Source: Catajapyx aquilonaris
Taxonomy: Eukaryota
Length of the DNA: 64,000 nucleotides
Reading direction: 5' to 3'
Assembly: GCA_000934665.2 (NCBI GenBank)
Contig: JYFJ02002038.1
Coordinates: 1-64,000, forward strand
A model generated the notes under the pieces. It was not told the DNA's origin. It was given only the letters and a program-made list of their open reading frames with translations, and searched no databases. Of this stretch, positions 15,345-49,000 are shown piece by piece; position 1 is the stretch's first letter; each line of letters starts with the position of its first letter. The position numbers and the translations under genes were made by a program.

Positions 15345-16357
15345 TATAATAATATAAGAAAATATTCCATTATCAGATAACATGTGAACAATCGTATTTA
15401 ATAATGGAAAAAAGTAAAAGTGATGGAAAGTAAAATGCTTAATGAGAAAAGTAGCGGCCTCAATAATTTCAACTGAAATGAGCAGATAAATTGGAGCAGA
15501 GGGGTACATGAACTCGATGGGTCTTTCCCCGTATTTCCAAGCGTGATGGGAACCAGACCAAGTGGTGTGGTAGCCGCTCCACGGGGAGGACGGGAGCCGA
15601 AGGGGCCTCCAAAAAAAAAGGAGAGACGAAGAAGAGAGAAATACATGAGGGAGGAGGAGGAGGAGGGGGTTGATGTCAAGGTCAGCAGGCACCTCTTACA
15701 ACAAGCCAGCTCACGTTTTCTGCGTTTCCCAACTCTCCGCCTCTCTGCAACATACAACTCATCACACCTCATCCCCAAAGTCCCAGGCATTATCCTGGAC
15801 GTCTCTCCAGCCAGTGTCCTCAACTTATCAGGAGGCCCAGGAAGTTTGGCCTCACCTTGGCCCCGTGGCCGCCACGGGACTCGATCTGCCGGAGAGAGAG
15901 ACGGGTCCTGTGGAAGGTCGCATGTGGTGTGTGCCATTATGGGTCAAAGTATCAGGGAAGGTGGTACCTCATTCCTCATACACCCCCCTCCTCACTCTCT
16001 CTGTAGGTTAGGACACACACACACACAAAGAGAATCGAAAAACTAGTTTGTACCAAGGCCGACAAAACTGATTAGTGGATAAGTCCATATTTGTAGTTAG
16101 CGCGTGTCTCTCTCTTCTTCTTCTTCCTCGAGTCCCGTACTCTCGGCGTCTCCTTGCAGGTTTTTCCTGCCCCAAGGATGGTGCCCTCTCAGGGTCATCT
16201 GGGTCAACTCTGACCGCTTTTTTTATACCATTTTCTTTCTTTCCGGGAACTCTCACTTTCGAGCACGGTCGCGTGCCAGACATACTGTCCAACACCCGGT
16301 AGTCATCGTTCGGTACACGTGTGCACGATGATGATGATTTAACAGCTTTTTATTGGA

Positions 16358-16494
16358 CAGAGTTGGACATTAATGGTGTCGTACTTGTGGCGCTATGGGC
16401 CGATGACGGCAACTGAAGGCAACTTTCGATTCGCTCTTTTTGCCGATACTGGCTCGTGAGGCCACAAGTACGACTCCATTAATGTCCAGCACTG
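16358..16494. mobile_element. Short Tc1-like MITE family (further copy 28131-28256, fragment near 24696-24750)
   Basis: Inverted ends GGACATTAATGG(T/A)GTCGTACTTGTGGC; shared internal GGCAAAAGAGCGAATC in the other copies; terminus TGTCCAGCACTG|TA as in 12943-13334. Confidence 0.65.
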
Positions 16495-18467: not shown

Positions 18468-18477
18468 GGCACGCGCA
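18468..18477 (+). promoter_or_regulatory. Hairy/E(spl) bHLH-repressor site GGCACGCGCA, about 210 bp upstream of the ASH1 ATG
   Basis: Matches the GGCACGCG class of site known proximal to achaete-scute genes; it sits in a G-rich promoter-like region. Confidence 0.7.
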
Positions 18478-18683: not shown

Positions 18684-19692
18684 ATGGACCATCCGATGTC
18701 TTCATCTCCTGGTGCTATGGCCCAACAGCAGGGGCAGCAGCAGGATGATGGGTCTCTGGCCCGGTGCAAGAGGAGGATCAACTTCGGATACACGCTGCCC
18801 AACGCTCCCCAGCCGGCGGCCGTTGCGCGCAGGAACGCCAGGGAGAGGAACAGGGTCAAGCAGGTCAACCTAGGCTTCTCCAACTTGAGGCAACACATCC
18901 CGGGGATGGCCCCTGTGCCCACCACAGCCAAGGGAAAGAAGCTCAGCAAGGTGAGTTACACACTGTCCAAGAAGTCTTTCAAATCCTATGGCTATGGCGT
19001 ACATTTCGCAACTTATTCGTTGCAATGGGTGCATACTGACTCACCCTACGTAAACGCACTGCCCAGTTTTACGCAAACCTTTCTTTGTGTCCTTTTTACT
19101 CGCGTTGTATTGGTAAAGCCATCATTTCTTTAATATGCAAACCTGTAGCTTCATGTTTGGTGCACATGTTGTACATAACCATCAGGGAATGTTCAATCTG
19201 GCTTACCGACAGTTTCCTCAGTCCTGTAACATCGTGATAATGTCCAGGGTGTACTATAAAGTGTTATTTCGACTCTCTTATCCATTAGAATAAAATATTG
19301 CCAGAGTGTATCAGTTAACTGACCATTGTCTCTCTTGTTCTCTGCAGGTTGAAACATTAAAGTGTGCGGTTGAGTACATAAAGAACCTGAAGTGCCTGTT
19401 GGACGACCCGAACGTGGTTCTTCGCCACCACAGCGACGGACAGTCGTCGTCGTCGTCGTCCGTGGGCAGCGCCAACACCCCAAACACCGACGCCTGCATG
19501 TCTCCCGCCGGCAGCGACGCCTCGACGTCCTCCAGCACCTCTCCGACGCCCTCGTACGGCTCCGAGGGCACCGGATCCTCGTACGTGGCCACCACTCTGA
19601 CCGCATACGACAACTACGAGAACTACGAGCCGATGAGCCCGGAGGACGAAGTGCTCCTCGACGCCATATCGTGGTGGCAGCAGACTCAGTGA
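18684..19692 (+). CDS. ASH: Achaete-scute homolog 1 (proneural-type ASH bHLH), join(18684..18950,19348..19692), 203 aa
   Basis: Exon 1 starts at gccATGG and encodes [45 protein letters not shown], followed by donor AAG|gtgagt at 18950/18951. Acceptor tctcttgttctctgcag|GTT at 19347/19348 continues in phase 0 with [18 protein letters not shown], completing the AS-C family bHLH. The protein ends in the AS-C C-terminal motif [15 protein letters not shown], with TGA at 19690-19692. Confidence 0.95.
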
Positions 19693-28000: not shown

Positions 28001-31000
28001 GCCAAAGTGACGAGACCATCATTCGTCGTGTGTTGCCTTTAAAAACAGGAGGGGACTTGGATGCAAGAAGGGAACAAGAACTTCAGTCTCGACCTATTTC
28101 AAAGACACAGCTTGAAACGGCCTAGTTGTGCAGTGCTGTACATTGATGGTGTCGTACTGGTGGCGCCGTGAGCAGTTGACGGCAAAAGAGCGAATCAAAA
28201 TTTGCAGCCAATTGCTCACGGCGCCATAAGCACAACGCCTTTAATGTCCAGCAGTGCATCTCTCTCAAAAATTTCGAGTAAAAATTTCACTCAAAAAGGA
28301 GCAACTTCGCAAAATAATATTTTTGGAGAGAATTTTACGTCGGAATCGAGTGAAATTTTACTCAAAGATAGAGTGAAAATGAGTGATCAAAATTTTTTAC
28401 ATTCAAATGGCCGAGCGATTTCCATTCAAAAAGAGTCGCAGTAAAATCAAGTAGGCTAAAGAGTGAAAATCACTCAAATTGAGTGGAAAAACACAAGAAA
28501 TTTTTCCGAGTCAAAATTTCACTCAAAAAGGAGCAATTTCTCAAAATAATATTTTTAGAGTGAATTTCACTCCGGAATTTAAAGTGTGCTATATATAGTT
28601 GACTGAAAGTGAGTTAATTTGTGATCGTACATTTTCCAGCACGATGTTGTAATCAAGTATTTCACACGTGATGAGAGTGGATCACTGGCAGCTTTCTCTC
28701 GATCTTGATTTGATTGGAGAGTTGATGGGGGGAGAGCGCCCGTCGTAAATGATAAAAGAGAGCACACGAGATACAAAGTCGTGTATGTGTATGAAGCAGT
28801 TCAGCAACCAGCAGCACGGGATCATTCCTGTGGCGGCGGACCAGACCTGGTAACCTTGAATCCTGCAGAGGTCTAGCCCAAGGGGGGGGTGTTTAAAGAA
28901 AAAAGAAAAAAAGCACCTCTTTTTATCCTGGCGGCCACTTATTTCGCACCCGCAGTTTTCTGCATGCCGCCCAAGCCAGGAATGGATGGGACTATAAAAA
29001 CCACCCTCCGTATAAGGAGCTGGCCCTGCCCAAAGACTATTACATCCTGGCGCGTGTGTCTATCGGAGGCCAAAGAAAAAAGCCGTCTCTTTTTTTGCAC
29101 GAGAGTCGATTGAAGGCAAAAGAGTGGCACGCGCCGTTGTCAATGACGATAAGTCGGCCACCTGCTGGTTGGTTGGTTGGTTGGTTGGTGCCCCGCGCCA
29201 AGAGCAAAAGCAAGGACCTCAAGGACGACAACTCCATTAGCATCGCTCTTATACTTTACCCCCTTCCCATCCATCCATCCTTCCTCAGGATCCCGGACAC
29301 ACGACCCCCAACTCGCCTTACTTACTTCTGGACACTTCGCACGCGACAACACATGTCGAGTCGCCTCTACTCGACCTGGACAGCACGGCGGGACAGTGAC
29401 ATTTGGCGACAATTTTGGCAACACTCAACCACCAGTTGGCGCATATGCTCTTCCTCTGCACACTACTACTCTCATGGCAAAATGTAGTACTACATGCACG
29501 TTGGTGATGAGTCACCGAGCGGACAAAGCCCACCAGCACGTGCGTCGCCTCGATTGAAGTGGGTCCCACCGACTCTGGCCGCTACATGTCCTCTAATTGT
29601 TGAACAGGAAAAGTGAGAATTGGGGTAACTACTACCTTGGTGATGAGTCAACACGGTCCAAGAAGCGGACATACAGAATAAGGGGATTAGTGTATAGGAT
29701 TGGTGGCAAAACGACAGTTTGGAGAGTGTTGCTGACCGTTGCTGTAAATCACAGACTTATTGCCTGTATCAAATTGCGAGCGAAACATTTTATCGAAACT
29801 ATTTACTGTAAATTATTGCGGGTTTGAAAATGCGGGCGTAATTATCTACCTTGTTTTTTTGCACCCCATCCATCCTCGGCTGCTACAATGCCAATTACCA
29901 GCATTGAAAGGGACAAAAAAAGGTGGCAATTGCCGTGGTCCCCCCATAAATGGAAACAATCGGACGGGTACAAGTATGTATATGGATGGCAATGAGTGAC
30001 AATGCCGAAGTGTAATAAACCTTCCCCCTCCCCCCCATAATTTACAAGAGATTTAAAAAAAGGCGTCTTATCTACGCTCCAAGACCAGTATTAGTAGAGT
30101 GTGCCAAATAAATCCAGAAGTTAAAAAGAGGCGGAGTTGAGCAGCACACGACTCCTTTTTTTTTCAACTACCGCCCACCACTTTTCCTGATTTCCATACG
30201 GAAATGCCTCCTCCCCCTCCAATGGTCCAACTAAAAAGCCAAGAGACAGCTGCTGTTCAATAATATATAATATATATAAAAAAGAGAGGTTTATTCTCTC
30301 CCCCCCTCCCTGAGGTGAGAAAGAGGGCGGTGGGGGAAAACGGGGTTGCCAGCTCGAGGGAAGGTTAGCTACCTTGATGGCTGTTGGCCTGCTACCATTT
30401 GCAGCAAGAAGAAGAAGCCTTGGCGGCACGTGGCCCGACCAGCTCCACGGTTACACGGCCGCCAAACCAGTGGGGGGTGGGGGGTGATTGCATGGGGTGG
30501 TGGAGGGCAAAAAGGCAGTGTTGCCATATTTTGTGGCAACAGGAGGAGGAAGGGCAACCTTCGAAAGAAGGAGAGAGACGCGTGCCTTCTTTGTTTCATT
30601 CCACTGCATCGAAATCGACTGAATTTTTACCTGATATGGGCACACCAACCACTTCTGATGGAATGGACAGGTTAGCACAGTGTCATCGTGTCCAGACAGC
30701 CATTCGCAGTCAAATTGTGCAAATAAAAAAAGCATATACGACATCCTCCCTCCAAATAAAATTTCCCAACTTGTTGACGGGGCGTCAAAGAGCACAGGGC
30801 AACATCTCGTCAAGGTTGTGCACCGGTCCCTCCCTATACTTCTTGACAATGGACACAGTTACTCGGAAGTTGCTTACCCAGCACTCGGTCAATGTTACGT
30901 CAAGGAGCTGGAGGAATAGTGGACTACAGTGCACTTGGTCGTATTTGAATGGCCGTCAGTTTAGGAATGGAGAGACCCGAATATTCTTGCAATTCTTGAC

Positions 31001-31423: not shown

Positions 31424-31635
31424 GGGCCGAATTCAGAGAGGTTGTAAACGCGCCCGATTAAATCCTTTAGTCAGCCTCGATTAGCAAATTTAATCAACCT
31501 GCTAATACAAAGACGGAGATTAGCGCTAAACGCCCCCTAATCGCACTTGCTAGCACTTTTAAATTTGCTAATCCAGGATAACTAAAGGATTTAATCGGGC
31601 GCGTTTACGTTAAGCAACCTCTCTGAATTCGGCCC
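31424..31635. mobile_element. PIF/Harbinger-like MITE, copy 2 (opposite orientation)
   Basis: Near-identical to 1958-2176 in reverse complement; 3-bp TSD CAC (31421-31423 and 31636-31638). Confidence 0.85.
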
Positions 31636-31694
31636 CACTTATTTTAATATTTCTCTCCTACTTGAATATTTGAAATGAAATCTCTCTGTATATA

Positions 31695-32256: not shown

Positions 32257-32697
32257 TATAGTGAGCAACTGTGATGCAGACAAATCAGCCTGCCATTGCT
32301 CGAATAATTTAAATATGATTCATTTAACATTCATTACACTTCCTGTCGTGATTAAAAATCTGCGGGAAAAATTACGAAATTGAGAATTTGACAACTCCTT
32401 TTCCAACAATTTGGCAAACCAGCGGTCGTATTCCAACCCGCCCCCTCCCCAAAATTTCGGTTACAACTATACGTATAGTGTTCACTGGACGGTGTATATT
32501 GGGGGGACAGGTGGCGCAAACCCCCTGACGTCACAACGTTTGCAACATGCGTGTGCTTCCTTCCTTCCTTCCTTCCCATAATAAAGCAGCATTGCATACC
32601 CTCAGAGGGTCAAACTTCCTCTACCTGGTAACAACTTCCCCCCCATGAAAACCCGCGGGTTCTGAAGGGGGAGGTATAGGAAGGGGGCCACGCTTCG

Positions 32698-32707
32698 GGC
32701 ACGCGAA
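32698..32707 (+). promoter_or_regulatory. Hairy/E(spl) site GGCACGCGAA upstream of ASH2
   Basis: Same 8-mer core, about 750 bp upstream of the proposed ATG, flanked by RCAGSTG E-boxes at 32507-32513 and 32878-32884. Confidence 0.6.
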
Positions 32708-33448
32708 TGGAAAAGAGAAGAGGTGGAGGGGGTATGGAGGGGTGGGAGGCAGTTTGTGTGTAAAAAGAGTGGGTGGTGGTGGGTGGATTTTAGTACGGGG
32801 GTCTCTCTCTACCTCCCTCCCGCTATATACACAATAATAGGTGGGTTAGGAGGGTGCGGGTTTGGTTGGCTGGTTGCACAGCTGCTGCCTGGATTCAACT
32901 ACCAACCTTACACACCAGCATACATAGCACTACACCATGATGTCAACCACCAGAATTCCCTGCAGACAGCCTATTGAAGAAATGCAATTTTTGCACAATT
33001 TTTTTTGCACATGATCACTATCCCACCCAGCGTTGAAGTCTCCACAAGTTGCTGGCAATATTTTCGAGGCTTGCTGCTGCCATTTATTGTATTCCCGGAT
33101 CCGGAAGCGCGCAACTGGTGGTTGCGGGTTGGCCCCCCTGTCAGCAGCAGCGTTGCGATAGAAAAATGTTTCCATCCTGCCCTCCCCATTTATTCCCCTC
33201 TCTTCCTCCCCATCCATTGGGTCCCCTTCTTCCCCCCTTATCCCTCCCACAGGATTCGCCCCCCCCCCCCCTTCCCTCGTTTTTCGGGTGCTGGCGCGTC
33301 AGACGAAACCCGAGAGCCTCCAGAGTCCGGCGGGTCTAAGCTGCCTCTAGAGAGCCCCGAGGGGGAAATATATATACATAATACACACAGCACGGTGTGT
33401 GTACAGCACCGTCCGTCACCCACTGCGAAACCAGAAGTGTATGGCCAG

Positions 33449-35297
33449 ATGAGCGCCAGCACTCAACAGAGCCAACCTAGAGCCATCAGGCCAAGCACAG
33501 TCCTGCAGACGGTGGTCGGAAACAGCACGCAGCCTTTGCAGGTACTGCAGGCCAACATGAACCTGGTGCACCAGCTGCCCTCGTTGGCCATCAAGCCAGA
33601 GGTCAGGAAGACTGTCCTCCAGGTCACGGCCACCACCCACAAGGTCAGTCAGAAGGTACGAAGTAGCCATATGATCAAAAAGCTAACTATCAGTATGCCA
33701 ATTTTCAGCACTCCCAGTAGTCTGAAAGTGGGACATACAAACTTTAACTGATTTAATATGTAAGATATCGACACCATGTACTTATAAGCAGTAATTGTTG
33801 AACAATATTGCTTTTGGCAGAACATACTACAACTAGGCCAATTTGACTCCTTCATTACCCAGCAAGAATGTGCAATGATTTAAAAAAATATATTGAAGCA
33901 ATATTGGCATTGAATGACACCAATTTTACCAGCTAATATTTTGGTAGCCTATAAATATTAACTGCTTAAAATATGCAGTTTGCTCTCTATAAAATGTTCC
34001 AGTAAAAATTTCACACAAAAAATTCGCAATTTTGCAAAATGCTATTTTGCTCCGAAAAGAGTTAGTATACTTTAACTCAAATCTAGTGGAAAATTTTACT
34101 CGAAAGAAGAGTGAAAATGAGTGGAAAACTACTCTTCCAGCTAGATTCACTCAATTTGAATGGTTTTTCGCTCGAATCTCAGACGTCATTTAGCTCCAAT
34201 TGAGCGGAAAATCCACTCGATTTGAGTGAAATGATCGCTCAGTTTGAGTGAAAATAATCTCGAGTGATTTCCACTCAAAAAAGAGTGCGGGGGTTACATC
34301 AAGTAGAAGAAAGTGAAAATCACTCAAATCGAGTGGGAAAACGCTCGATTTTTTAAAAAATAGTGATATGTCTAAAATTGCAATTGGCTGACAGTGAGTT
34401 GAATGATGAGACGGGCTAAGTGTCACATGGTAAGAGGGCCTTCAACTATATATACTAAGAACTAAAAGGTAACGTGTGAATGATCCTGAATGTGACATTT
34501 TTTTTTTGGACTGCTCAGCACCATGGGAGCGGGCCGTCTGTGGCGCGTCGCAACGCCCGGGAGCGCAACCGGGTGAAGCAAGTGAACCAGGGTTTCGCGC
34601 ATCTCCGAGCGCACCTTCCTCAACCTGGAAAGGGCAAGAGACTCAGCAAGGTGGAGACCCTGAGGACAGCGGTCAGGTACATCCGAAACCTCCAGCTCAT
34701 GTTGGACAACCAGCCCATTCCGGACGACGCGTCCAACAACGGCGAGAACGTGTCTCCTGGAAGCCTCGAACAGGTACTGCGCAGCTATTCTTACATTACT
34801 GTACTTGAGAGGTGACACTCCAGCCTTTTCCAATGTCACTTCTCGAGTAAGATGGTTTTTAGTAACATCCACCTTTTTTTTTTTGCGTGACCCAACAGTC
34901 GTGCTCTCCAGCCAGCGTGTTGAGCGACGGAACTTACGGGATGCAACCCGAGTCTCCCCCACCCTCTCCTGATTCCCCTTCGCCTCCTCCGTCCCCACAA
35001 CCCGAGTCGGTGGTGACCCTCGACCCTACCGTGACCCTCCCGAAGGAAGAGGACGCCCTGCTCGAGGTCTTCGCCTGGTGGCAGCATGGCCAGACAGACT
35101 TCCAGAGGTCAGTTGGTAACACTTGTAGCTCATTATCTCAACACCTATATGCTGCAGACACCAAAATTAATGACATCATCCATACATACAAAAAGCAAAG
35201 TTTGTTTGTATGTCTAACAAGTAATAACCTCCGTGACAGCGGGATTATCATGGCAACTAGTTACCATGGCAGCAACAAAATGATCGACTGTTGTTGA
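33449..35297 (+). CDS. ASH: Achaete-scute homolog 2 (divergent, possibly asense-like), join(33449..33655,34519..34773,34899..35297?)
   Basis: Exon 34519-34773 holds a complete bHLH ([54 protein letters not shown]) between acceptor ctcag| and donor CAG|gtactg. The upstream exon [24 protein letters not shown] ends at AAG|gtacga (33655). The downstream exon begins after t-rich..aacag| (34899) with a Ser/Pro-rich stretch and a degenerate C-terminal motif [16 protein letters not shown]. All junctions are phase 0. The start codon and the true 3' end are less certain because of a possible donor AG|gtcagt at 35107/35108. Confidence 0.85.
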
Positions 35298-38200
35298 TTA
35301 CACTACCATGGCAATAGGCCGTGCGAAGAACGTGCTCCGCTGATAGTCTCTATAGATACAAAGATCATCTGGTCCCAAAGAGTTCATTGTAGAAGTTTGC
35401 TCGAGCCATTATGATACACCCGTCAGCACTCTAGCAAGGTGCAAGCGTCTTTTCCATTTCCACCTTGCTCTGTAGAGCTCCATAGTCTACCGTTGTTCGA
35501 AACAATTTTTGGGGGGAGATTATGTGACATTCGTATAGTGTGGCACAGATAGTGGGTGTAGGATAGGGTATGACGGCACGTGAGGGTGTCGCAGTGGCAA
35601 CGACGCAAGCCTTATTGCGTCGGATGGGGTCCAGACCCTGAGCCTGAGCGTTCGGTCCCCTCTTTGAAAAAGCGGCCTGATGCCTTTGGAGCCACCCAAG
35701 CGGACCTAAAAGAGAAGAAAGCGGCGGATGGTGCTGGTGGTGGTGGTAGGTAGGGGTGGGGGGACTAGGGGGCAGGAGGAGAACTGTTTGAGCTCCACCA
35801 ACTGCACGGAATTCATCCTTCTAACCTTCCACCCACCGTCCCTTCTTTTTTCTCTCTCTCTCTCTTTCCTCTTCCACCCTCCTTCTTTTTCCTTCTCACT
35901 AAACCAAATTCCAAGACATTTGGTGACCCAACCAGAAGGATAGGTGGTGGATGGATAGGACTTGCACTGCGAGGGGGAGAGAAGGGACGACGCACACAAA
36001 GAGCGAGAGAGACTGGAGGGGACGTCGAAAGGAGGGGTGCGACAACCTGTTGGGTTGTGGAGAGTACAAGTCGATACTGCAAATGTCACCTGTTGACAGA
36101 ATTGCGCCACATGGCCCAGGTCCGTTCCCCAGAAAATTGGGCGACAATGGCAAGACCCAGCCTTCAGTACAGGTCCCATTATTATGCGGCGAGTTACAAT
36201 GTAGGTATAGTACACAGTCATCATCCCTGCCTTTTGAAACTGGTTTTAGTTCAATCTAGCCATTGCCTGCCGGATGGTACGCCGTAGCTTTTATTGACAA
36301 CTATAGTGAACCCGTTGCCAAAACCTATAATCAGTATGAGAGTGGCAACTCCTACGATATTATAGGCCTGGAACTTGGCGCTGGCGTCGGTGGCCGAATC
36401 TGCGGCATACTTGAGTCATACGATTTGTGTTGGTTCACAAGGCGTCCGCTCGAATGCGCCTGGCAACCCGATGGCTCCAGCGAGCGACTCCAGCGCCAGT
36501 GGAGACTCTCTAACTACGCTACCGTCACCATAAGGCTAGGGTAGAAGTTGCAGTGGTGGCAATCACACAACTTTAATGAGATGGCCCGACGATTTACCAC
36601 GTAGTACTATTCTTCAGGCATAGATGGCGCTTTGCACACTCCTACCACCATCTGAGCGGGAGTTAGCCGATGATATCAGGTCGAACAAACAGCCGACGGA
36701 GAGAATAAGCCTTTTAGGAGAAAGATGCCCGGTCCTATCCTCCTGGAAAAATCCTCATTGGCAACACTCCCTTCGCACTATTTCCGTTTCCCTTTTTCTG
36801 TCCGCCGAATCCAGAAACGCGGGTGCCTTGACCATTATGAGCATTCTCTACGGACCCAAGATTTATACCTCCCAGCTACAAGGCAACTATTGTTACAGTT
36901 TGGCCAACAGAAAGGGCCCGGTAATGCAGGGCAGTTTTTCCCACCGTTTTGGGGATCCCCCCGAAATTACGATCGCCGTTTTCACGCCGGGTCCTCCCTA
37001 AACTCTGCGTGTAATTCCCGAGACCAATGGCCACTCTATAAATCTAGTCCAATCTGCACATTCAAGCCAGGCAGGGGTTGGAAGGAATAGAAAAAATATT
37101 AAAAAGGGAGCAAATTTCTTATGAAATCAAGGCACCCCTCCCTCCCTGCCCCACACTAGTTCAAAAAAATGGTTACAAAGTTGGGTTGCGTTTTGGAGCG
37201 TGATTTATACTTGGTGGGTTGGGTAGAGGGGTTTTTCTATGCCTTTTCAACCGAACCCAAGGGTCCAAACTCACGTGCTTTTTTTTTTTGTTCCATGTGT
37301 GTGTCCTCCAGCCAAGAAAACCGTCTTGGGGGTACCCATGTAAGGTCGGCTCCGAATATTCCGGACCGTATGTGCAGTTCGGGGGTCCAGACACGCGACT
37401 GTGTGTGCGTTAAAAAAAAAATCAACCTTGAATTTGATGGGTAGCCCACCCTTTGAGGCCGTTTGAAATGCAACATTAGGACTCTTGGGTTACGTGATAT
37501 AAATCAGCCAATAAGAAACATGTGGTCGTGTGGTTCCTGGGTCCCTTTGACGATTCTGTACACAGTAGACTATAGGTGGTGCAAAACCATAATTCACGGT
37601 CCATAAAGCAACGGTAACATACCCTGGGGTAATAATTATGTAACGTGTTACATCATGTGGGTAAACTTGTGAACTCTCTCCAAAACTTGGCAACACCGCC
37701 TCTCCAGACGTAGTACCATATCTGTCACATAGATTGAGCACACTTCTGATGACTCACCGCGGACAGAGTCGCAGAGCTAATTCTATGTGACTAGCAGAAT
37801 ACCTTCGCACGGAAATTGAAGAATTAATATATGACAAACTTTGCCTTATATATGTAAGATTAATTCCGCTGTCCGGAGACAAGGCCCTTTTGGCTACTTG
37901 AACCAGCCAATAATCCGACCTTGGCGTATGAGTATAGTGATTAGTCACACAGAAAACCCGACTGTTGTGTGTGGCTAAGTAAAGAGCAAGGCTCGTGCTA
38001 ATTCGAAACAATTTCTTGATTTGCATTTTGTGTGCAGTTTCTGCCGGGCAATTTGGAGATTTTTTTGGGGGGTACTGCTGGAGGGTGGTTGGGTTGGGTT
38101 GGGTGTGGGGGGTCAGTAATTGGTCCGCGGTCTGCAGCTGGTCCATTCCCACATCACCAGTAATATAATGATGAGGCGGTCCTTTTTGCCCTTGCACGCC

Positions 38201-41200
38201 ATTTCGTGTTTTGGCAACGGATTACACCCCCCCTCCCTCCCTCCCTCTCTCCTCCTCAAAAATTCTTATTCGTGGGCAGAGCAAAAAATAGTTTTTTGGC
38301 AAGGGGGGGGGGGGGGCTAAAATAACATAGTAACACAAAAATTGCACGAAAACATTTTTGGCGACCGTTGCATGTTCTGTAATATTCATTTTTTTCCTCT
38401 CTCATTGCAGGTTTCCAATAACGTGACGAGGTCGACGCCACGCAGCCCACGTGGAAATTCTTTGTAAATAACGCGAAATATACCATATTGTACATAAATT
38501 CGCATACAAACACTGCCGGTTATTATTGAGGAACATGTTATTTTTTGGGGGGATATAGAGCGCTAAATAAAGAATTATGTGCCTTCTTTACTCCCCTGTC
38601 TGTTTTGAATATTATAACATCTTGAAGTCCTTTAACTTGGTTGTATCAATGCTTCGTTGTTATCGTTTTTAGGACCATATCTCTCACATAGATGGCGCCA
38701 TCTCTGCACATTACTGATGACTCACCACGGACAAGCAGAGGCACAGATCCTAAGCCAATTCTATACATACGAAACCGTTTTTCGCACGGCCTGTTTCCAT
38801 GGCAATGTAATCAACAACAATCAATCGTTTTTTTTTTTGACGCAATGGTAACCCGTTGCCATGGACAAACAAACAAACTTTCCTTCATATAATCCGTAAG
38901 ACAAGGTGGGGAGAACATGAGCGCGTAGCAATATTGATGCCGTAGATGAAAAACCAAACACCAGGAAAGAAACTAAATTTTGGGTATTTGGACTTTCGGT
39001 TTTCGTACTTTTCCCGTAATCAGCGGCATGTAATCCATCAGTGTGCCAAGTTTCAGCACTCTCAGTAGTCCGAAAGTGTATTAGGTGACCCGGACAAACA
39101 TACATGCTTACAAACTTTCCCGTTCATGAGACTACTTTATCTTCAAAAATGTACTTATTCGCTACTTTTTTTAGATGCGAAAAAATTGTGACGATGATTA
39201 TGACGATGATGATTATTATGACCAACAATGCGGGATGGTTGAGGGACACGGCTTGGAATATAATCCAGGTATATAGGAGTGTGGGTTTGTGATGGGGAGG
39301 GTTGGTGGCGTGTGGAGGGTGAGAGGGGGGCATAGGGCCAGAAGAGAGGGGGCCAGATGGTCTCCTAAGCTGGCCCATTGTCCCCCATGCGAAGGATCGT
39401 GGATGGGGAGAGGGGGGGGCATGGAAGTGTATATAGGCCTGCAACACAGCCTACAGGGGGAGACCGGGGCCTTATTCATGAGCCCCCATGTCTATAGGAC
39501 TCCATCAGATTGCAGCACACACATGCCATCAGGTCTGCTTTCAAGACACATGGTCAAATGCTCCACATTTTATTCGATCAGTTCAGTCTGCATGCTGGGA
39601 CACCCTGTATAAATCATCCGGTGTTAAAAATTACTGGTAAATAAATGGCTGGAGAGTGATTACTGATTAATGGCCCTCGAGGGTCATCATCCGAGAGAAA
39701 TTATGTGAGAGCTGTCGGGTCATATTTTTGGATAAACCCCGAGAATAAGCACCTCGATCACTCTCTTAATAAATTAGGCTCGCGGGGGTATGGGGGGGAA
39801 GGGAACCGTAATTTTTTTTAGAGAGAGAGAGAGAGAGAAAGGTTTGGGTGTTAGGAGAAGAGTTATGTGCATACCCGGGGTCGCCTCGGGGTGCAATTCC
39901 TGACCCACCTCCAAAAACCGAACCGTCTTGTCTATGGCCTATCGTCTCCCCCTTCTTACCACGCACCCTTCCTTCCCTAAGATATATATACAAAAAAAGA
40001 AATCTTACGCACCTCTGGCGACCCGGCGCGTGCCTCAAAGTGAGTAACGGGCCGCCGCGTTAACGGAAGAAATAAAAAAATACGTGCAGAGAAAAATATA
40101 TTTCTAACCACCCTCAACCCCTGGGTCACGTCGAGGTTCAGGCCTAATGTATAGTCGATCCCCATCTTACTTGAAATGTATACACTTGGCAGGGTTGGAC
40201 ATATCCTATACATAACTAGCAGTGGAACCCGTTCTTCGCACGGGCCAGTGTTGCCAAATTTCGGCAACTGTTTCGCTATTATAAATGGCAGAAAATGAGC
40301 AGTCTGCATGTTAGTCATGTTTGGCTGGACCGTTGCGACATCAGACCTTGAGACGTTGGAGGAAGACTCATAATTTTTCTTTTCCCCCTATAGCTTCAGG
40401 GGTTGGCCCCGGGGCGAACCCCCATCCAGGCGACACGATTCGTCCCCGACACGAGCCGAATAGCAATCAGACTAATAACCATAAGTGCAGCAATAAGTCT
40501 GCCTTCCATTATTTATATTTTTTTTCAGTTCAATTTATATCCCGGAGACCAGCCCCGCTGTCTACGGGTTGCCAGGTGAAGGGAGCGTGCTCTATGGAGC
40601 CATCTTTTGTCTTTTCACATCCACACCTGCCCCCTCCCCAGACAACCAATAAAAAAAAACAACCCGCGACGGGACGGCAACCGACCAAAAAAAAATTAAA
40701 AAGGAAATCAGCATAACCAGCATGCTAAATGGATGCAGAAAAGATGCAACCCGAGGCCCGTACTGACACGTGCTTGGAGTCTAATCAGCCCGCCCTCACC
40801 AGCCCGAGGGAAAGTGGACTGGTCACCCTCATCCAGGTAACGGGGACGTCAAGGTCGAAGGTCAACATATCACGAGGTCAAGGTCGAAATGGGACACAGC
40901 ACGATACAAAAATAAATTGTAGGTACCTTTGCTTGGTCCCTTCAGTGGAAAATGGTGCTCCAAGTAAAAAAAAATGTCCATTGGTGACATTGTTGACATT
41001 GTGACCTCTTCTTTTCCCAGTAGGCTAATTCTGTGTTGCTGCGTCGCTGGGTCGCTTCCAGGAAGAATCGCCTTTCGATTAGATTCGGAGGGTTTGTTGT
41101 GAACCGACCGGATGAAGCTGATTTCAGCGACGAGTCAAGCTTATCGATACAAAAATTACGCGCAGGAGATATGTGGTGGACTGCATGGCATCAACTGTTG

Positions 41201-41635
41201 ATATTATCTGGTCTATTTTACTCAGTCAAATGTACCACGCTCTATTATAAGTGACATTAGAGCATGCGGTATTCGGAGCAGGATCAAAAGGACCTATACA
41301 AAAAGGGGGTAAAATAATGAAGAGTGACTTTTTTGGGATTGCGATCCCAACATCTCACGTTTGGATGATCATTTATTCTCGCCACAATAAGAGACAGACG
41401 TTGAGCATAAAAAAAGGGTAATTGCAAGTCTCCGTTTCAATTATGCAACCCTCCTAGCCAAGGTCATTGGTTTGAGGGCCAAAGCAGCACAGATGGTCCT
41501 CTCAGAATGATGGAGGGGACGTGCCGGCGCTAACACACACACACAAAAAAAAAATCGAAAAGAAAAAGAATGAAAAAAGAGGGCAAAGCAAGCAAATGAA
41601 ATACAAAAAAAGAGAGCCGCCATATATGTTGGCAG

Positions 41636-43065
41636 CGCGTGAGGCACGCGATTCAATCTCGCAAATTAAACCCACAACAATTGTCGCCATATTGTAATGT
41701 ATATAGCAGAATCCGCCAAACTTTCCGATATGTCACACAAAAATTCGTTGGGAAATCCTATAGCGACAGCGACCGAAAATTATTGTCAAATATATTTGCA
41801 GGCTTTCGTTTATCAGAAAAATTGCGCTGAAACACGTTGCCTCAACATCCATAAAATGTCAAGGGTGGAAAAAAAATTTTGCCAAATTTTTTTTACAGGT
41901 AGGGGTAGATGGGGGGAGGCCGTATAAGGGTTCGACACCTGTTGATTTAGCAGGTTTTGTCCTCGACTAGATCACCTGCAAAGTCTGCGAAGGTTTACTG
42001 CCAAATAGAGACAAAACTTGTTTAGTAGCGGAAATGCTTCTGTCCGCAAAGAATTTTCTGATGGGTTTTCTTTGTCCGTTTCGCAGTCTTTGGGGCTTGA
42101 ACATGACGGGTCGTCTAGCCATTTTTGGTTTCTATATAGAAAAAACCGTATATGCACAAAAATTTCGTAACGGACTAAAAGTCAAGGTCCTATTCGTCGC
42201 TGAGTAGAACTGCAAACATGTTTCTCCGAAATACACTGGACGTTTTTCAAAAACTGCAAGCACCTGCTATGCATGTCGCAAACACCTGTGGAAAAAAATA
42301 GCTAATAAACTGGGGTCCTTTTTTGAGCCCAGAGGACATCAGGTCGTCCATTGTAGCCGCTTCAAAAATAGCCGCGTTTTTCCAATGACTCCTCAGTCTC
42401 TGGGGGCCTTGTCGTGTGTCCGGTCCTTCCAACATCCGGACATCGGTATACAAAAGCGGTGCTGTGTCCGGATTACAAAAAGAAAGGTTGAGTAAGCTTA
42501 GGGTCGGAAACAAAGGGCCCAATAAATCCGTGTGGAGAAAAAAAAAAGAAATGGCTGGCAGCGACACCTGCGCAGCCTATACTATATAACGTATAGTATA
42601 AAAGGAGGAGGAGGTGGTGGTGTAGTGGTGGAAATACACGTCCTGCACGTAACGGAACTTGTCTGGAATGGACACAACAAACAGCAACACACACACACAC
42701 ACCCAATCCCATTTTTCCACTTCCCCACCTGCTGCCTCCATCAGCTGTCTGCTTTGCCGCCACATTTCTTCCGTTCTTTTTCTTTCAGATGAAAAAAAAA
42801 AATACCCCCTTCATTTCACCCCTCGAGGGTAGGACAAACATTGTGATGATTGGGCTTCTAAATGCGTATACACAAAACGGTAGGCTCTTCCCGAAAGAAA
42901 CGCCATTAATTTGACGGCGAAACTTCGAGAGGAAAAACCCGCCGCTTCTCTGTGTGCACAGAGCATTCGGAGAAACTTGGCGCGTGCCAGGGTCCGAATA
43001 TTATTTGGAACAGTTTTTAGCGCAATTAAAAGGAGGATTACTTGTTGGGTGCACCTGCGCGCGTG
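41636..43065. promoter_or_regulatory. Candidate neural-precursor enhancer: proneural E-box cluster with bHLH-repressor sites
   Basis: RCAGSTG matches start at 41936, 41973, 42261, 42283, 42565, 42726, 42742 and 43052. GGCACGCG sites at 41643 (+) and 42979 (-); extra CGCGTG at 41636 and 43060. Confidence 0.5.
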
Positions 43066-46000
43066 TCCAAAAAACCAGGTTATTAACTTTAGCACTAGCA
43101 GGTCCGAACGTAGCAAGTCATGTAGAGTAAAAATACTGCCAAACTTGTTAGACCTGGTTGCACCACTACTGACAGGGCGACACCTGAACTGCCAAAATCA
43201 GATGACCGCAAAAAAAATCTCCCTCGAGTAAAAAGTGTGAAATGGACCACCCTGTATTGGGCCACCGAGAAAATAACAGATCCGGCATCCATTTTTAGTA
43301 CTAATCCCAAAAACCCACCCAAAAATGGAATCTCAGCGGCTCATCGGACCAGAATACTAATGAATCAGTGCCCCCTCAAAAATGTAGGTTAAGTTACACG
43401 CCCGGACTAATTAAGAGCGGGCGAGAATATAAATTAATAGGCTCCGATTAATATTTCAGTCTGCCGGACCCCCCACAGAAAAAGGAGATATTTTTAAAAA
43501 ACCTATTTTTTTTCGGAAGTTTTTTCGGAAGGATGCTTGCATGTGTGACAATGGGTTTGTAAGTCTGGGCAGGGAGCAGCAGGTTGAACTAATTACGATC
43601 GCGGCGTGAATGTTAAGCGTGCTGAGCAAGAATCAGGTTGTGTGGTTTAGGGGATATAAGGAATCTCCTGTACCAGATGGCCAGATGCCTAACTTACTCT
43701 CCTAAGGGCCTCAGTGTGTGTGATGCATTTATGCGCACACTCACACACGCCCAAAGAGGTTCGCCAGACACGCGACAGATAGATAGATATATTCGGAGAA
43801 GAAGAAGAAGGTAAGAAGAAGAAAAAAATGGTTATACGAGGGGGCAGATGGTAGGCGCGAGAGTCCGGCGGTTTTAAAAGGGACCAACGACCCTCTCTTT
43901 TGCTCTGCCCCGGGGCCGCCCCTCGCATTCTAATTGGGATTTTACGCACACTTTGCCAATCTCAAGAGTGGGTTTTTGGCATGCAGTAATGCTGGCGGGT
44001 TAATGCAATATGTTGGAATGATAAGAGGACAATGTCGTCGAAAAAATGGTGCCGGAGAACAAGCGTCTGAAAAATGCAAAACGGTCTCGTTTTAGCCATT
44101 GTGTAATGTAGTCCTTGAAGGGGTAATTAGATAAAAGATGAGAAACACAATATAATGAGTCAGTTTTCTGCTCTAGCACAAATGGAAATGGTTGAAGTCC
44201 ATGGACAGTGTGGCAGCCTGTATGTGATGAACCACCGTGATCTTCCAGCCCCACATACTGATGAGGGACCACCTCAGGCTGTGGCGTATATGCAAATAGA
44301 AGGATTCCAGGAAGAAGCGCGCCGGACTTGGAAAAATCTGGTCTCGGAAATAACAACTCCTTGGTTTTTCGCATGGGATGACCTTGCCTGTTGTTTTAAA
44401 AGTGTTTTTTAAAATGTGACAGACTCGTTTTCGTGCACCCTATACGAAAGAGAAGAAGAAAATAGTGGTGTGCAGCACCTGCTGATTCGTCGGTAGATTC
44501 GCCACATCCAAAGTGCGGATTCTAAGAAGAAATTCCCAGCTAGGCAATTTTAATAACTCTGTGTTTTAACATTGCAGCTGGCAGCTTTTTCCCAAGTACT
44601 GTCGCAAGCATTAGAACAACTTATCCGAAAAATCCAGGAGAACCACCAAATACTACCGGCTGACATCAAACAGCCAAAAAATATCACATTAATCTTCTCC
44701 CATGAAAAGTGGATCAAGTTTTTTTTCCACAATAATTCCGGTGACTGTAATTAGCGAAGGAGCCCTTCCCTTCCCTTACCCCCCACCCAAGACACGAGAC
44801 CAACAAACATAAAGGTAAAGCCGAAGAGGTGCCTGGTCAAAAAAATTTAAGAAAAAAAAATGGGAGCAATCGGCCTCCCTCCCTTTGGAAAAAGGATTGG
44901 AAGAAAAGTAATGACGGCGGCGATTGTTGATAAGAGAGTGAAAAAAGGCAAGGTTGCCAGATCCCTTCGGCACCACAGCATAAAAAAGAAGACTTCCCGA
45001 GGCCTGCCCAGCCCCCCGAGATATAAGACAGGCAACAATGCAAACCGCGCATACAAACACACACAAAAAAAATTAAGAGTTGGCGGCACACTTCGGCCTT
45101 CTTCATTAGCATGCCAGCTGCACGCGCACTGGCACATGTACCGAGGACCCCAACAATGAAACCAATGAGCCCAACAATAATCGAAGAGTGGAACAGAGTG
45201 CCAGAAAATTAGAAAATTGAGATGCTCTGTATACGTGCCCTGCTTAGTCCCGTCAGGTGCCAGAAAAAGTACTCCCATTTGAAATAAACTCAATTATCTC
45301 CCTTCAAGATTGTTGGCATTTTTTTCGGGCTATTTGGCATTTCCACTCTTTATCTTGACACCTTATCGCACATTGCAGATACGTCACTTTTGCTAAGCAA
45401 AAAAAGGGGCGCATCTACACATTTTGCTTGTTTTTCGCGGTCCGAATTTCACTGCCATTTCCTTGTGCCGGCCCCACAAAAATATGCTGAGAAAATGAAC
45501 TTGGCCCAGTGTTTAAATTCCTGTGACTCGGCATGGAGTTGGTGGGTCTGTTTTTTTGGGGGGATAATGGTCATGCAGGCAGGGCCACGCCGAAGGTCGT
45601 GCACACTCCACCGGCGGAGTCGGCTGTCTCTCTTCTTCTTCTTTTTCTCTCATATATTTTTTTATACCGTGTTATCCCCTGGGCCACGCGAGTGCTGATG
45701 GTGCACGTGACCAGCCAGCTATACGTATGCGCCCACTCACTTTTTTATATATTCTTCTTGGTCTTCTCTTCGGGGGTTTCTCTGCGGCTGCGGTCGCGTG
45801 CCAACAGATCCGTGACGACAATTTTTTTTCTGGAGGGGCCATCTCGGTACCTTTTTTTTTAAAAACTCGCCCTGAGGGTGAATTTACCCTCCGCCAAAGA
45901 CAAAACCGTTGTACTCATTACCGCCAATTTTTTTTCCCCCTACACCTCCCCTGGTTCATCTACCTCCAATTAACCGCCCTCGACACTACAGATTTAGAAA

Positions 46001-49000
46001 GAGAAAAAAGTGGGGCGATATAATTACCAGGGTTATTACTTGTAACCGACAAGGTCGCCTTGTTATAATAATTTGTATGAANGGGGGAACAAAAACCGAT
46101 CCTGGACCTCTCAAGATTTTTCGGGGGCCTTCACCTTCGAGGGCGTCAGACCTTTTTGAAGGGGGACTGTGCCCTAGTTTCGACACCGCGCCGTTAATTA
46201 CAATCCAATTATACAATCTCAATCAAATATTGGAGGCTAATAGGTCACGTTAGAGTAGCGATATGTAGCATACTTTTAATGTGTGTTATCTTAGCTTATT
46301 ATCAGCAATACAGTAATTGCTTCAAGTACTTGCCATGACACTATAATCAATGAAACTTGCAGCGTCCTACGATGTACGAGTAATAATCATTAGTGTCGGA
46401 GCTCGTAATTTCAACTTTAGCACGAATTATTGTAATAAGTCAAATAGCAATATAGAGTATAATTAGTTAATACGTGCGACTCCGGTGCGACTATATTACA
46501 TTTATAACCTTCATCTAGATTATAGCCTACTACTACTGTAGTAATAAAATGCAATTGAAAAACAATGTATGAAATATAATAAATGCAAATTGTAATTCAG
46601 ATGTCGAAAGATGCTCTATGTAACTTGTCACTTAAATGATTGTTATCTAGGAACTATACTGTAAATATACGCCATTAACTCATTTAATTCATCATATGCG
46701 CACAGTATATGTAGTTGCTGTCTATTTACTTGATGAAAATCCTAGCTGCCTAGACATTTTCTAACCAACAGTATTTAGTTACAAGAACAATAATTTATAT
46801 TGAAACTTGATATTGTTTCTCGAGCCTTGCTCGACGATAAGCTTTCCAACAAAACACCTCTGTTACTTGACACTCAACGACACTCTTTTTTGTGTGTGTC
46901 TAAAGTGCAAACTTGTCATCCACACTACTGCTTACATTACAACCAAAGTGAGTTGATTGATAGTGCTCCATCTCCTTATCTGAACTCCACAGTCTCTTAT
47001 ACACCATCGCGCCCTTGTTTAAATCTGCGCAACAAAAAAAGAATCGGTCAGTGGTTTGGCCAAACAATCAGCAGGGTAATTGAACCCGAGTCTCCCGATT
47101 GCAGGACAGGCCATTAATAATTCCCGCGGAGCATAAACCGGTGGCAAAAAGACGAGAGACCGGGGCGCATGCTGGCTTAAGGAATGTGGCCATTTTTGGG
47201 GGACCCAGTGCGAAGGAGATGATAGGTTTTGTTGGTTGGGTTGGAGGGGGGGGGGGGGGGGTGGNGGGGGATGGTTTGCCTGATTAGACGCCGGCCTAAC
47301 CGCAACCGGTTCGGCCCCAACCTGCACGAAAATGAATGCCCGCCTGACACGGAACATACACAACACTCCGAGCAAGCAACAGCAGCCTCCAGCACTACTA
47401 CTACATCTCCAAACCCAGAAGACTGCCTGGGAATTGCCCTCAGGACATGGTGCCCTTCTTCAACACCTCTTCCCCCACCAAAAAAAAGGAGAAGAAGTGA
47501 TGCCAGTAATAAATCAGGGACTGATAAATGCCCGGCTCTCCAGTGTGTGAACATATGGAGCTTTACAGGCTTTCAAAATTTTCCCAAGTGGGGAAAGACT
47601 AAAAGAGAGGTCGAATTAGCATCGTCCGTTGGCAAGTTCGAGTCCTCCAAAAATAAAAAGGGGGCAGATGGCCATCCCCCGAATCTGGCTTCCACTTGAT
47701 GATGTCCACACCGCAACAAGCGCTTTTGTGCGACAAAAATCCGGATATTGAAGCAGAAAGCCCCCGGAGGCTCCGGATTCCCACCAAACCACCCCCCTTT
47801 TGTCTTTCATTCTCTGAGACATAGCAGGGAGAGAGACAGAGAACATGTTCTCATCCCCCCCAAAAAACTAAAGGACCCTGCTGGTTGCACTAACGGTAAA
47901 AATATTCAGGATCTGTGGAAAAACGGACACGTAACTAGAGACATGGGAAGTGTCGTGATTCACTCTATAAACTCTCTGTAAAGGCTGGACGTCGAACCCA
48001 CTGTGCGATGTGAGTCAGAATCTTTTTTTTTTTTTTTGTATGGTTCAAAAAATAAAGCTACCTTGGCAAAGGCCGGAATATAATTAGCCGGTGAAGATGA
48101 GCTTCCCAGAAATGAAGAGTTGCGACGTTCTGGGGGTCAGTGTAGTGTGTAAGGTGGGTTTGCTTAAATTTTCGCTTGGCTGCTCTTGTTGCGTGGGAAA
48201 ATCCGATTCGGACCGATGCGCAAAACCATGATCTCACCTGCACTAAGGCCCCCCCCCCTCCCCCACACCTACGCCCACTCTCCTGTCCTTTTTTTTGCAC
48301 TATTTTATTCGCACATCAACGCCACGGCCTCACAAGGACAAGGGCACGCGACATGCACAAAAATCGCTCCAAAAAATAATGATAGAGACGCTCCAGGTTT
48401 TTCCAACACTCGCTGTATACAGTCGAAGCTGAATACATTGAGTTTCCGTTGATAGCACGAGCGATAAGGAGGCTCGAGGCAACGAAAAGCAAGATGATGC
48501 ATGATTATAGGCTATAGAATAGGCTATAGAAGTAGCCCACTTGTGCTTATTTTCAAACGGATTTGCAGGAGTCGTTATGTTATACGGACGTCATGTTATG
48601 TCCTTTTTTTTCGGGTCTGAAATAATGCAAAATTGCAACTTTCAGACCCGAAAAAAGGGCGATTCAGCTCCCAGTAAGTAATTTTAATTTGCATTCATTA
48701 AACGATAAAAATATGGTAGTTGGCTACATTTTTATGGCTCGCAAAAAGAAGTCCAAGGCGCGCATGAAATTCGGGTGCACGTTTTGAGATGCCAATGGGC
48801 TAAACAACTGGTCTTACTTTGCATTCCAGCAAAATGTGGTCTGCATTTCGCCACCCTCTCCCCCCCTCAATTTTTTTGCGCAAAAGAATTCGCGATAAAA
48901 GGCTCGCATGCCACTGGGACTCATCCCCGATTTTAATCACGAGAGCACCACCAGTTATGAAAAGTGAAGGAAGATTGATCATCGTGTGGCCATGATGATG

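Follow-up and report, generated by a model that had tools for sequence, protein, structure and literature searches.

How far does the repressor link between Hes proteins and a proneural gene extend along the DNA: to a single promoter site or to the whole locus? That Hes proteins repress proneural genes is textbook knowledge, the direct DNA evidence coming mainly from single promoter sites, and an ancient Hes-proneural linkage was reportedly described by Rebeiz, Stone and Posakony in 2005. The Hairy binding consensus is ggCACGCG(A/C)C, and a probe from Drosophila achaete carries the Hairy site GGCACGCGAC (PMC449821). The de novo motif of Hes1/HES1 is GGCACGCGCC or SGCRCGYGC (bioRxiv 10.1101/336305, 10.1101/335869), and in the Hes1 ChIP-seq with motif GGCACGCGCC the protein binds Ascl1 and Dll4 (bioRxiv 10.1101/336305).

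The question is raised here by a contig of 64 kb (the window, that is, the whole stretch of DNA analysed) which contains an ASH gene and an asense-like gene, two neuron-specifying genes of an arthropod. Within positions 16270-48350, a span of about 32 kb, the 8-mer GGCACGCG occurs ten times on both strands. It is the published class C word of Hairy and Hes1, and the ten copies are likely to be docking sites, putative as they stand, of Hes repressors. The arrangement is a locus-scale variant of the known Hes-proneural linkage.

Number and arrangement of the class C sites

The ten sites are distributed as follows:

16270..16277, minus strand: class C site TGGCACGCGAC, outside a repeat beginning near 16340; ASH start codon 2.4 kb downstream
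18468..18475, plus strand: class C site GGCACGCGCA, 216 bases before the start codon of the ASH gene; a TATA-like element (18566) lies about 90 bases downstream
29126..29133, plus strand: class C site TGGCACGCGCC, between both genes, E-box CACCTG about 25 bases downstream
30579..30586, minus strand: class C site GGCACGCGTC, between both genes, class B GGCACGTG at 30425
32698..32705, plus strand: class C site GGCACGCGAA, 751 bases before the start codon of the asense-like gene; a TATA-like element (32823) lies about 120 bases downstream
40027..40034, minus strand: class C site GGCACGCGCC, downstream of the asense-like gene
41643..41650, plus strand: class C site GGCACGCGAT, second CACGCG core back-to-back at 41636
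42981..42988, minus strand: class C site TGGCACGCGCC; an E-box and another CACGCG core occupy 43052-43065
45795..45802, minus strand: class C site TGGCACGCGAC, neighbours CACGCG at 45685 and CACGTG at 45704
48343..48350, plus strand: class C site GGCACGCGAC, the last of the ten, neighbours E-box at 48235 and Su(H)-type CGTGGGAA at 48192

The original prediction had listed ten 8-mers in this locus, and all ten were found, each with the trailing dinucleotide given for it; the plus-strand coordinates were exact, and those of the minus strand were positions of the 10-mer, two bases lower than the start of the 8-mer. It had also placed no site in the neighbour genes at 50-64 kb, where GGCACGCG is indeed absent, as it is from 1-16 kb of the contig. 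The sites at 18468 and 32698 are likely to be promoter-proximal, with respect to putative promoter positions. The remaining eight are distal, the nearest start codon being 2.4-15 kb away, and five of them lie downstream of both genes. Spacing between sites is dispersed, from 1.3 to 10.7 kb. Whereas GGCACGCG is present in 10/10 sites, the full 10-mer GGCACGCG(A/C)C is present in six, all of them distal, so the promoter-proximal pair is not among the best-fitting words.

The genome-wide count against a matched background, proposed as a check together with the prediction, puts GGCACGCG far above both the genome rate and the shuffles. The mean of 100 dinucleotide shuffles is 0.82 copies, with a maximum of 3, and the whole genome holds 2103 copies per 285.6 Mb, from which 0.47 would be expected in the 64 kb contig. 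The excess over the genome rate is about twentyfold (Poisson P 1e-10, or 4e-7 once multiplied by the number of such windows). Among the 22,417 8-mer classes of positions 1-50000 the word ranks 12th with a Markov model of order 3, 8th with order 4 and 4th with order 5; those that outrank it are simple repeats or words of a dispersed repeat, with one exception at order 4. The longer forms are also concentrated in the locus: 6 copies of GGCACGCG(A/C)C against 334 in the genome, and 4 of the 102 genomic copies of TGGCACGCG(A/C)C, an 11-mer that was picked after the window had been seen; two of the latter is the maximum for any other contig in the 100 places listed. GG precedes the CACGCG core in 10/33 cores at the locus vs 8/119 in controls; position 10 is occupied by the dyad-partner C, which gives the 10-base dyad form, in 28/49 sites.

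The ASH and asense-like genes

The exons around which the sites are arranged, all on the plus strand, are listed below:

18684..18950, plus strand: proneural ASH gene, coding exon 1, with basic region, helix 1 and loop; Pfam HLH; GT donor
19348..19692, plus strand: proneural ASH gene, coding exon 2, with helix 2 and C-terminal ASH motif
33449..33643, plus strand: asense-like gene, coding exon 1, with IKPEV as an imperfect Ase motif
34519..34773, plus strand: asense-like gene, exon 2, with bHLH (Pfam HLH 4e-19) and GT-AG borders
34899..35107, plus strand: asense-like gene, exon 3, C-terminal motif 5/16 identical
38411..38571, plus strand: likely last exon of the asense-like gene, proposed from an acceptor, a stop at 38424-38426 and AATAAA at 38566

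The first gene shows both ASH characters, an achaete-scute bHLH domain and the 16-residue C-terminal motif (12/16 residues identical to the reference printed in PMC2958161), and its best matches are insect and vertebrate ASH proteins. In the second gene the C-terminal motif stays within the limit of at most 50% identity used for asense-like proteins, and IKPEV has a proline at the polar place of the Ase motif. Its structure is illustrated by contigs of run X5: one spans 33316-33643 and stops at the donor of exon 1, another skips the 125-base intron that is kept in DNA contigs, and the length of the proposed last exon fits 152 unplaced letters of the X5 contig. Besides the class C site at 32698, an E-box was noted at 32879; the gene likely has a long 5' UTR with an E-box.

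Repeats, chance and microRNA-124

Could the ten words be explained by a repeat family, by chance or by microRNA-124, whose sequence contains GGCACGCG? The claim that the sites avoid repeats was borne out, as genome-wide DNA matches overlap 0/10 of them in a search that skips very common words and which a rare or decayed repeat could escape. Matches to the other fetched stretches of the same genome also overlap 0/10 sites, the nearest edge being 152 bases away; four sites sit in contigs of single-copy depth, and none of the X5 contigs covers any of the ten. Among the sequencing runs listed, this DNA is present in the source sample and in one sparse run, and no RNA run with it appeared. An origin in a transposon or repeat family was rejected on the ground that no site lies within detected multi-copy sequence. 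In favour of these explanations, GGCACGCG is 1.4 times commoner genome-wide than its reversal, and a short duplication on contig C6410 holds 4 copies. Against them stand the corrected P value given above and the lack of repeat overlap. A microRNA-124 gene or target was rejected: the AA prefix occurs in 1/10 sites here and in 0/33 sites of other animals, and the sites lie on both strands and outside the inferred transcripts. All this taken together, such explanations are extremely improbable.

Specificity within the genome

A control set of 25 other bHLH/homeobox stretches (580 kb) contains 8 copies of GGCACGCG vs 10 in 50 kb here (P 2e-7). Four of those 8 are located at atonal-like and neurogenin-like genes, so labelled by reading the bHLH sequence, and without these loci the control set has 4 sites vs 4.0-5.2 expected. 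As a positive control of the same scan, Su(H) sites were concentrated at E(spl)/hairy loci (8-18 per stretch). Delta was tested as a predicted target, and 6 copies were found in 20 kb of its 57 kb contig (P 4e-5 against control loci), five of the six being still unknown when the stretch was chosen. The site battery is not special to the ASH/asense-like locus. The cognate bHLH-O repressors are represented by at least five WRPW Hes genes with the basic-region proline, on contigs C1358 and C129.

Drosophila neuralized is a direct Hes target (PMC6070291); among the matches listed, the neuralized-like contig (C479) had no GGCACGCG(A/C)C and the three TAFH contigs had no TGGCACGCG(A/C)C. No neurogenic gene was recognised on the other contigs with 2-4 sites (C631, C654, C1723, C1794, C6410, C37, C9, C114 and C390), which matched a ligand-gated channel, a phosphatase, PIG-M, a TEAD-interacting motif, a kinase exon and a zinc-finger gene. 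On C23, two sites within 4 kb accompany a homeobox gene that was outside the control set.

Achaete-scute loci of other animals

Across 54 non-redundant loci of achaete-scute genes from other animals, GGCACGCG occurs 33 times vs 4.3-5.1 expected, and the reversed word 5 times. At least one copy is present in 21/54 loci, and the excess appears in both halves of the set. Ranked by the number of loci in which it occurs, the word is first or second of 32,896 8-mers, and likewise in distal DNA alone; at more than 3 kb, 12 sites are found vs 2.1 expected. A locus carrying 3 sites falls within a protein cluster of stony corals. The Hes-proneural linkage is seen across animal phyla, coral included, in a comparison with expected counts rather than with control loci from the same genomes. 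Copies of AGCACGCG and CGCACGCG are also raised in these loci, about threefold. Three of the 13 loci of at least 10 kb are free of sites, among them cockroach/termite-like ASH and asense loci.

Comparison with known systems

With the achaete Hairy site and the ancient Hes-proneural linkage this locus shares the word, the gene family and, at each gene, a site that precedes a TATA-like element by about 100 bases, and sites are also present at atonal-like and neurogenin-like genes and at the coral ASH gene. The differences are that here ten sites extend over 32 kb, eight of them distal and the best-fitting words among these, and that the same pattern is repeated at Delta. The original prediction had taken a single promoter-proximal site of the (A/C)C form as the ancestral feature: the class C identity agrees with the published word, but the site nearest to the ASH gene is the non-canonical GGCACGCGCA.

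As in the SOPE of arthropod achaete, scute and asense, each gene of the ASH and asense pair has an N-box or class C repressor site nearby, and the asense-like gene likely has a long 5' UTR with an E-box (PMC2958161, PMC4832353). [quoted passage not shown] In the P+R code of the Drosophila SOP enhancers of neuralized, phyllopod and nervy, CACGYG repressor cores are likewise found in several enhancers per gene, each of which confines expression to the precursor cell (PMC6070291). There, three cores are reported in two enhancers; here there are ten extended sites, and paired proneural sites are not in excess. Mouse and human Hes1/HES1 ChIP-seq targets (Ascl1, Neurog2, Dll1, Dll4, Atoh1) fall into the two categories seen here, proneural genes and ligands of the Delta type. 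It is in promoter peaks and not in distal ones that the class C word prevails there, and the available parts of those reports do not describe a distal field of many sites.

The idea that the linkage is distributed across many enhancers is supported in part, by the class C identity of the word, its specificity against genome and transcription-factor controls, the lack of repeat overlap and the recurrence of dispersed copies at Delta and at achaete-scute loci elsewhere. That the sites mark enhancers or modules stays a conjecture: within 100, 250 and 500 bases of the ten sites taken as a group, motif density does not exceed that at random places for proneural E-boxes, Su(H) sites, alpha-like boxes, N-boxes or Sens sites, and only extra CACGCG cores are enriched, weakly (P about 0.05, one of many tests). 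SOPE or P+R enhancer identity was not borne out for the group, which does not show clustered E-boxes and alpha boxes; single sites may still qualify.

Proposed mechanism and alternative readings

On the whole it is rather probable, judging from the sequence, that the ten class C words in unique non-coding DNA are docking sites of Hes dimers which would silence both promoters and scattered enhancers. Following established Notch biology, E(spl)-type proteins induced by Notch and prepatterning proteins of the Hairy/Deadpan type would bind the sites and recruit Groucho through WRPW. Two of the sites would serve the promoters and the other eight the activating modules closest to them, and therefore each route to proneural expression would have its own off switch. 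Delta would be wired likewise, closing the loop of lateral inhibition at the DNA level. Because the ten-site excess is accompanied by a crowding of the same word at Delta and in distant flanks of related genes elsewhere, the known repressor link likely acts over whole loci and not through one promoter site.

A different organisation, which we consider unlikely, is that the Hes sites form a field silencing the entire locus, long-range Hairy/Groucho action shutting the complex whatever the positions of the modules. The lack of activator motifs clustering at the sites and their dispersed spacing would agree with it, and the reach of Hairy exceeds 1 kb from its sites, with deacetylation spread over broad blocks (PMC4547095). 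On the other hand, in the same study Hairy sites outside a module context did not silence a distal enhancer and the range of repression did not depend on the number of sites, and the neuralized enhancers of Drosophila hold their own repressor motifs, which act locally (PMC6070291). It is considerably less probable that only the two promoter-proximal sites function, as in the classical linkage, the distal ones being weakly selected or bound without effect. Hairy does bind errantly at many loci without change of expression (PMC4547095) and the class C word lies in promoter peaks of mammalian ChIP-seq, but the best-fitting words are all distal, the distal excess is replicated in other animals, and such an excess would not persist in neutral DNA.

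The sites might also be read by another bHLH or bHLH-PAS factor. Hey, Clockwork orange, Myc/Max/Mnt, Met/Taiman and Spineless/Tango have CACGCG or GCGTG preferences, so that all of them could contact the core; TNGCGTG is present on the opposite strand in 5/10 sites, and Hey-like, Cwo-like and Max-like genes, labelled by sequence reading, exist in the genome. Nevertheless, the preferred CACGTG form is not enriched (GGCACGTG 5 vs 2.5 expected), TNGCGTG shows a small excess (23 vs 15 expected), the GG...C dyad flanks fit the Hes consensus, and the enrichment falls on proneural genes and Delta, which makes this reading quite improbable.

Returning to Hes docking sites, we propose tentatively, as something possible rather than expected, that locus-scale fields of putative high-affinity class C sites, and not single Hes sites, have been carried by the core genes of lateral inhibition (achaete-scute and Delta; atonal and neurogenin more lightly) from a time preceding the cnidarian-bilaterian split, and have been renewed with the turnover of enhancers. 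Direct Hes target loci and their enhancers could then be recognised in raw sequence by the density of sites, and lineages without the sites through loss, such as those with the cockroach/termite-like loci, would repress proneural genes by another route. No new factor or pathway is added. The dispersed excess at achaete-scute loci across phyla, repeated at Delta, suggests that distal binding at many sites is a selected feature of lateral inhibition; the ten exact positions bear on whether Hes proteins act enhancer by enhancer or on the whole locus, and the word offers a simple sequence signature with which to find neurogenic enhancers in animals without genetics.

Rest of the contig

Among the 121 stop-to-stop frames of at least 95 residues in 1-49,900, a scan which short exons could escape, the two HLH matches were the only sign of genes among the sites; three weak sub-threshold matches were also recorded. 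For the neighbour protein of 1034 residues no homologue and no Pfam family was found, and its SPAG17-like label is a weak Atlas lead.

The achaete-scute locus

The window contains a tandem pair of achaete-scute family genes, both on the plus strand, and a genome search for achaete-scute relatives returned only this pair and a distant third bHLH on contig C1600. No further genes were recognised in 1-49,900 among 121 frames scanned. The main features are the following:

18684-18950, 19348-19692 (+): exons of the proneural ASH gene; C-terminal ASH motif 12/16
33449-33643, 34519-34773, 34899-35107, likely 38411 onward (+): asense-like gene
18468, 32698 (same orientation): putative promoter-proximal GGCACGCG sites, followed after ~90 and ~120 bases by TATA-like elements at the predicted promoters

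The first gene is assigned by its sequence as an arthropod proneural ASH, the end of its protein resembling those of cockroach, termite and bug ASH proteins. Following the criteria set out in PMC2958161, the second is termed asense-like; it retains 5/16 of the C-terminal ASH motif and has an imperfect Ase motif. One contig from sequencing run X5 omits the 125-base intron of this gene, which is retained in the DNA contigs, and this fits a spliced transcript. Introns are present in both genes (18951-19347 in ASH; 33644-34518, 34774-34898 and 35108-38410 in the asense-like gene), one ASH intron splitting the bHLH at the loop-helix 2 junction; the fly AS-C genes are described as intronless (PMC1310631).

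Excess of GGCACGCG at the locus

The excess of GGCACGCG, the class C Hairy/E(spl) 8-mer, is a real, specific and replicated feature of this locus. The ten sites of the original prediction were all recovered: the window holds exactly 10 copies, five per strand, all within 16270-48350. Besides the two proximal sites there is one at 2.4 kb upstream of ASH, two are intergenic and five lie beyond the point where the asense-like gene is inferred to end; the six perfect GGCACGCG(A/C)C words all belong to these eight distal sites. In 100 dinucleotide shuffles of the window the mean was 0.82 and the maximum 3. The whole genome (285.6 Mb) contains 2103 copies vs 1520 of the reversed word, a rate that predicts 0.47 in the 64,074-base contig, so the genome-wide count proposed earlier as a check places the locus 21-fold above background (Poisson P 1e-10 for ten copies; 4e-7 corrected for window number). 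Elsewhere the densest 32 kb held 4 copies, among the 100 of 2103 places listed, on the 44 largest contigs (11 contigs checked). The 11-mer TGGCACGCG(A/C)C, selected post hoc from the window yet including the published consensus, occurs four times on the window contig, twice on five others and once on the remainder (100 of 102 places listed). Among 22,417 8-mer classes in 1-50000, GGCACGCG ranks 12th, 8th and 4th under Markov orders 3, 4 and 5.

These copies fall outside the repeats that could be identified, as had been noted from the sequence: searching 15950-16420 and 39800-48600 against the genome's DNA gave no repeat overlapping any GGCACGCG there, four sites fall in contigs of single-copy depth, and none of the ten is overlapped by matches to other fetched stretches of this genome. 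Many fold-back (MITE-like) elements are present in the window (e.g. 31424-31635, 31691-32260, 1605-2185 and 15040-15328), and at 31.3-32.6 kb read depth is thousands of times that of single copy. The miR-124 sequence also contains the GGCACGCG word; as a source it was rejected, the AA prefix being found at just one of the ten sites. Each of the two achaete-scute genes has a miR-124 seed match in its 3' region (20003 and 38579), and miR-9-type seeds occur at 19824 and 20700.

Other loci of the genome

A control set of 25 other bHLH and homeobox stretches (580,096 bases, drawn from 54 HLH and 98 homeodomain matches) contained 8 copies, vs 10 in 50 kb of the window (P 2e-7). Of the eight, two belong to an atonal-like locus and another two, both GGCACGCGAC, to a neurogenin-like one, the two labels being read from sequence; with these loci removed, 4 copies were observed vs 4.0-5.2 expected and the word ranked below 21,000th. 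A homeobox gene on C23, outside the control set, has two sites within 4 kb, and its addition would bring the controls to 10 sites in ~600 kb. In the same scan Su(H) sites concentrate at five genes whose products end in WRPW, three of them hairy-type and two E(spl)-type; therefore the scan detects a known linkage, and candidate repressors are present. The three hairy/deadpan-type genes form a cluster on C129 (50.6, 75.3 and 121.3 kb) and the two E(spl)-type genes lie on C1358 (18.2 and 28.1 kb), each of the five being Su(H)-rich.

Notch ligands were searched for as predicted Hes targets, and two of three DSL contigs appear among the 11-mer matches listed (P 0.002). The Delta gene has six GGCACGCG in 20 kb (C1149:3001-23000, at 6995, 8662, 8692, 12815, 13174 and 21113), five of them not known when the stretch was chosen. 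This exceeds the control loci (P 4e-5; reversed word 0) and equals the density at the ASH locus. The Serrate contig has one site in 20 kb, already on the 11-mer list, and the third DSL contig none in the 10 kb examined. Counting against the target prediction, the 10-mer is absent from the neuralized-like contig C479, and none of three TAFH contigs is among the 11-mer matches listed. Three GGCACGCG(A/C)C words were also seen in 5 kb at C1723:13265-18367, where no gene was recognised across the 44 kb contig; by its motif content this is a candidate regulatory region of some Hes target.

Achaete-scute loci of other animals

The best 80 of 242 relatives from metagenome contigs, with near-identical ones merged, gave 54 foreign loci. 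These contain 33 GGCACGCG, where the composition of the individual loci predicts 4.3-5.1 (reversed word 5), with at least one site in 21 of the 54. One three-site locus is assigned to a stony-coral cluster. In non-coding flanks the word occurs in 18 loci vs 3.7-3.8 expected, ranking 1st (order 3) and 2nd (order 2) by locus number among 32,896 8-mers; with the proximal 1.3 kb excluded it occurs in 14 loci vs 3.1 expected, ranks unchanged, and it stays within the top 40 in each half of the set. Two words of similar form, AGCACGCG and CGCACGCG, are raised ~threefold in these loci as well; the expectations for this set are drawn from locus composition.

At distances above 3 kb, 12 sites were counted vs 2.1 expected. 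A few distal sites may be closer to a promoter than counted because the bHLH is split in three loci; a second ASH gene accounts for none of the distal sites. Thirteen loci reach at least 10 kb: nine have 2-3 sites, one has 1 and three have 0. Pooled, they hold 20 sites in 206 kb, about one third of the density in the window's 32 kb. By sequence, two of the three site-free loci are cockroach/termite-like. Over 13 and 12 kb, such ASH and asense loci (L074 and L071) lack GGCACGCG and contain just two CACGCG cores per locus, their CpG content being normal; the linkage was possibly lost, or the sites lie beyond the contigs. Distal sites are often paired, 0.6-1.4 kb apart, in six foreign loci (L024, L029, L045, L058, L056 and L014), and likewise several in the window.

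Candidate factor and proposed action

GG precedes the CACGCG core at 10/33 cores in the window and 6/19 at Delta, vs 8/119 in controls, and C is the tenth base at 28/49 sites (P 2e-6), which makes up a full GG...CC dyad. CACGTG-preferring factors are disfavoured because GGCACGTG is not enriched in the window. In published work, the Hairy site is ggCACGCG(A/C)C, with an achaete probe that includes GGCACGCGAC (PMC449821); Hes1 ChIP-seq gives the de novo motif GGCACGCGCC, with Ascl1, Neurog2 and Dll4 bound (10.1101/336305); and DLL1, DLL4, ASCL1 and ATOH1 are bound and repressed by human HES1 (10.1101/335869). The ten sites are very probably Hes sites.

Hes dimers would dock on the ten putative sites and bring in Groucho via WRPW, the two proximal sites mediating promoter repression of the kind known from fly achaete, and the other eight repression of the enhancers nearest to them; we consider this arrangement as a whole moderately likely. 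In the fly complex, enhancers are spread across at least 100 kb (PMC2958161, PMC12533043), and each fly neuralized enhancer requires its own repressor motifs (PMC6070291). It had been proposed that repressor linkage is distributed across many enhancers, so that the sites may mark the modules of the complex. The specific excess, recurring at Delta and at foreign loci, speaks for the distribution, but module-marking is the weak step of the explanation, because neither E-boxes nor Su(H), alpha-like, N-box or Sens motifs are clustered around the ten sites and because Hairy is able to act over long distances or to bind with no effect (PMC4547095).

The Hes-proneural linkage is already known. Rebeiz, Stone and Posakony reportedly claimed in 2005 that proneural genes carry a high-affinity site of ancient origin, and may already have listed multiple sites per gene. 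No published account of a locus-wide GGCACGCG excess at achaete-scute or Delta loci was found in the literature searched, most subscription journals lying outside it; the sites tabulated in PMC2958161 and PMC4832353 may be relevant to novelty.

Other features of the window

In 1-16 kb GGCACGCG is absent and no gene was recognised; GGCACGTGCC, a class B Hes-type site that is perfectly palindromic, lies at 4135-4144, 14.5 kb upstream of ASH, and a second GGCACGTG at 5409. On the minus strand, 50082-54029 contains two long frames of 1034 and 247 residues (61% GC), neither with a Pfam or homologue match, with a weak Atlas lead to SPAG17-like proteins, and at 56658-58439 about 20 C2H2 zinc fingers are arrayed in a single frame.
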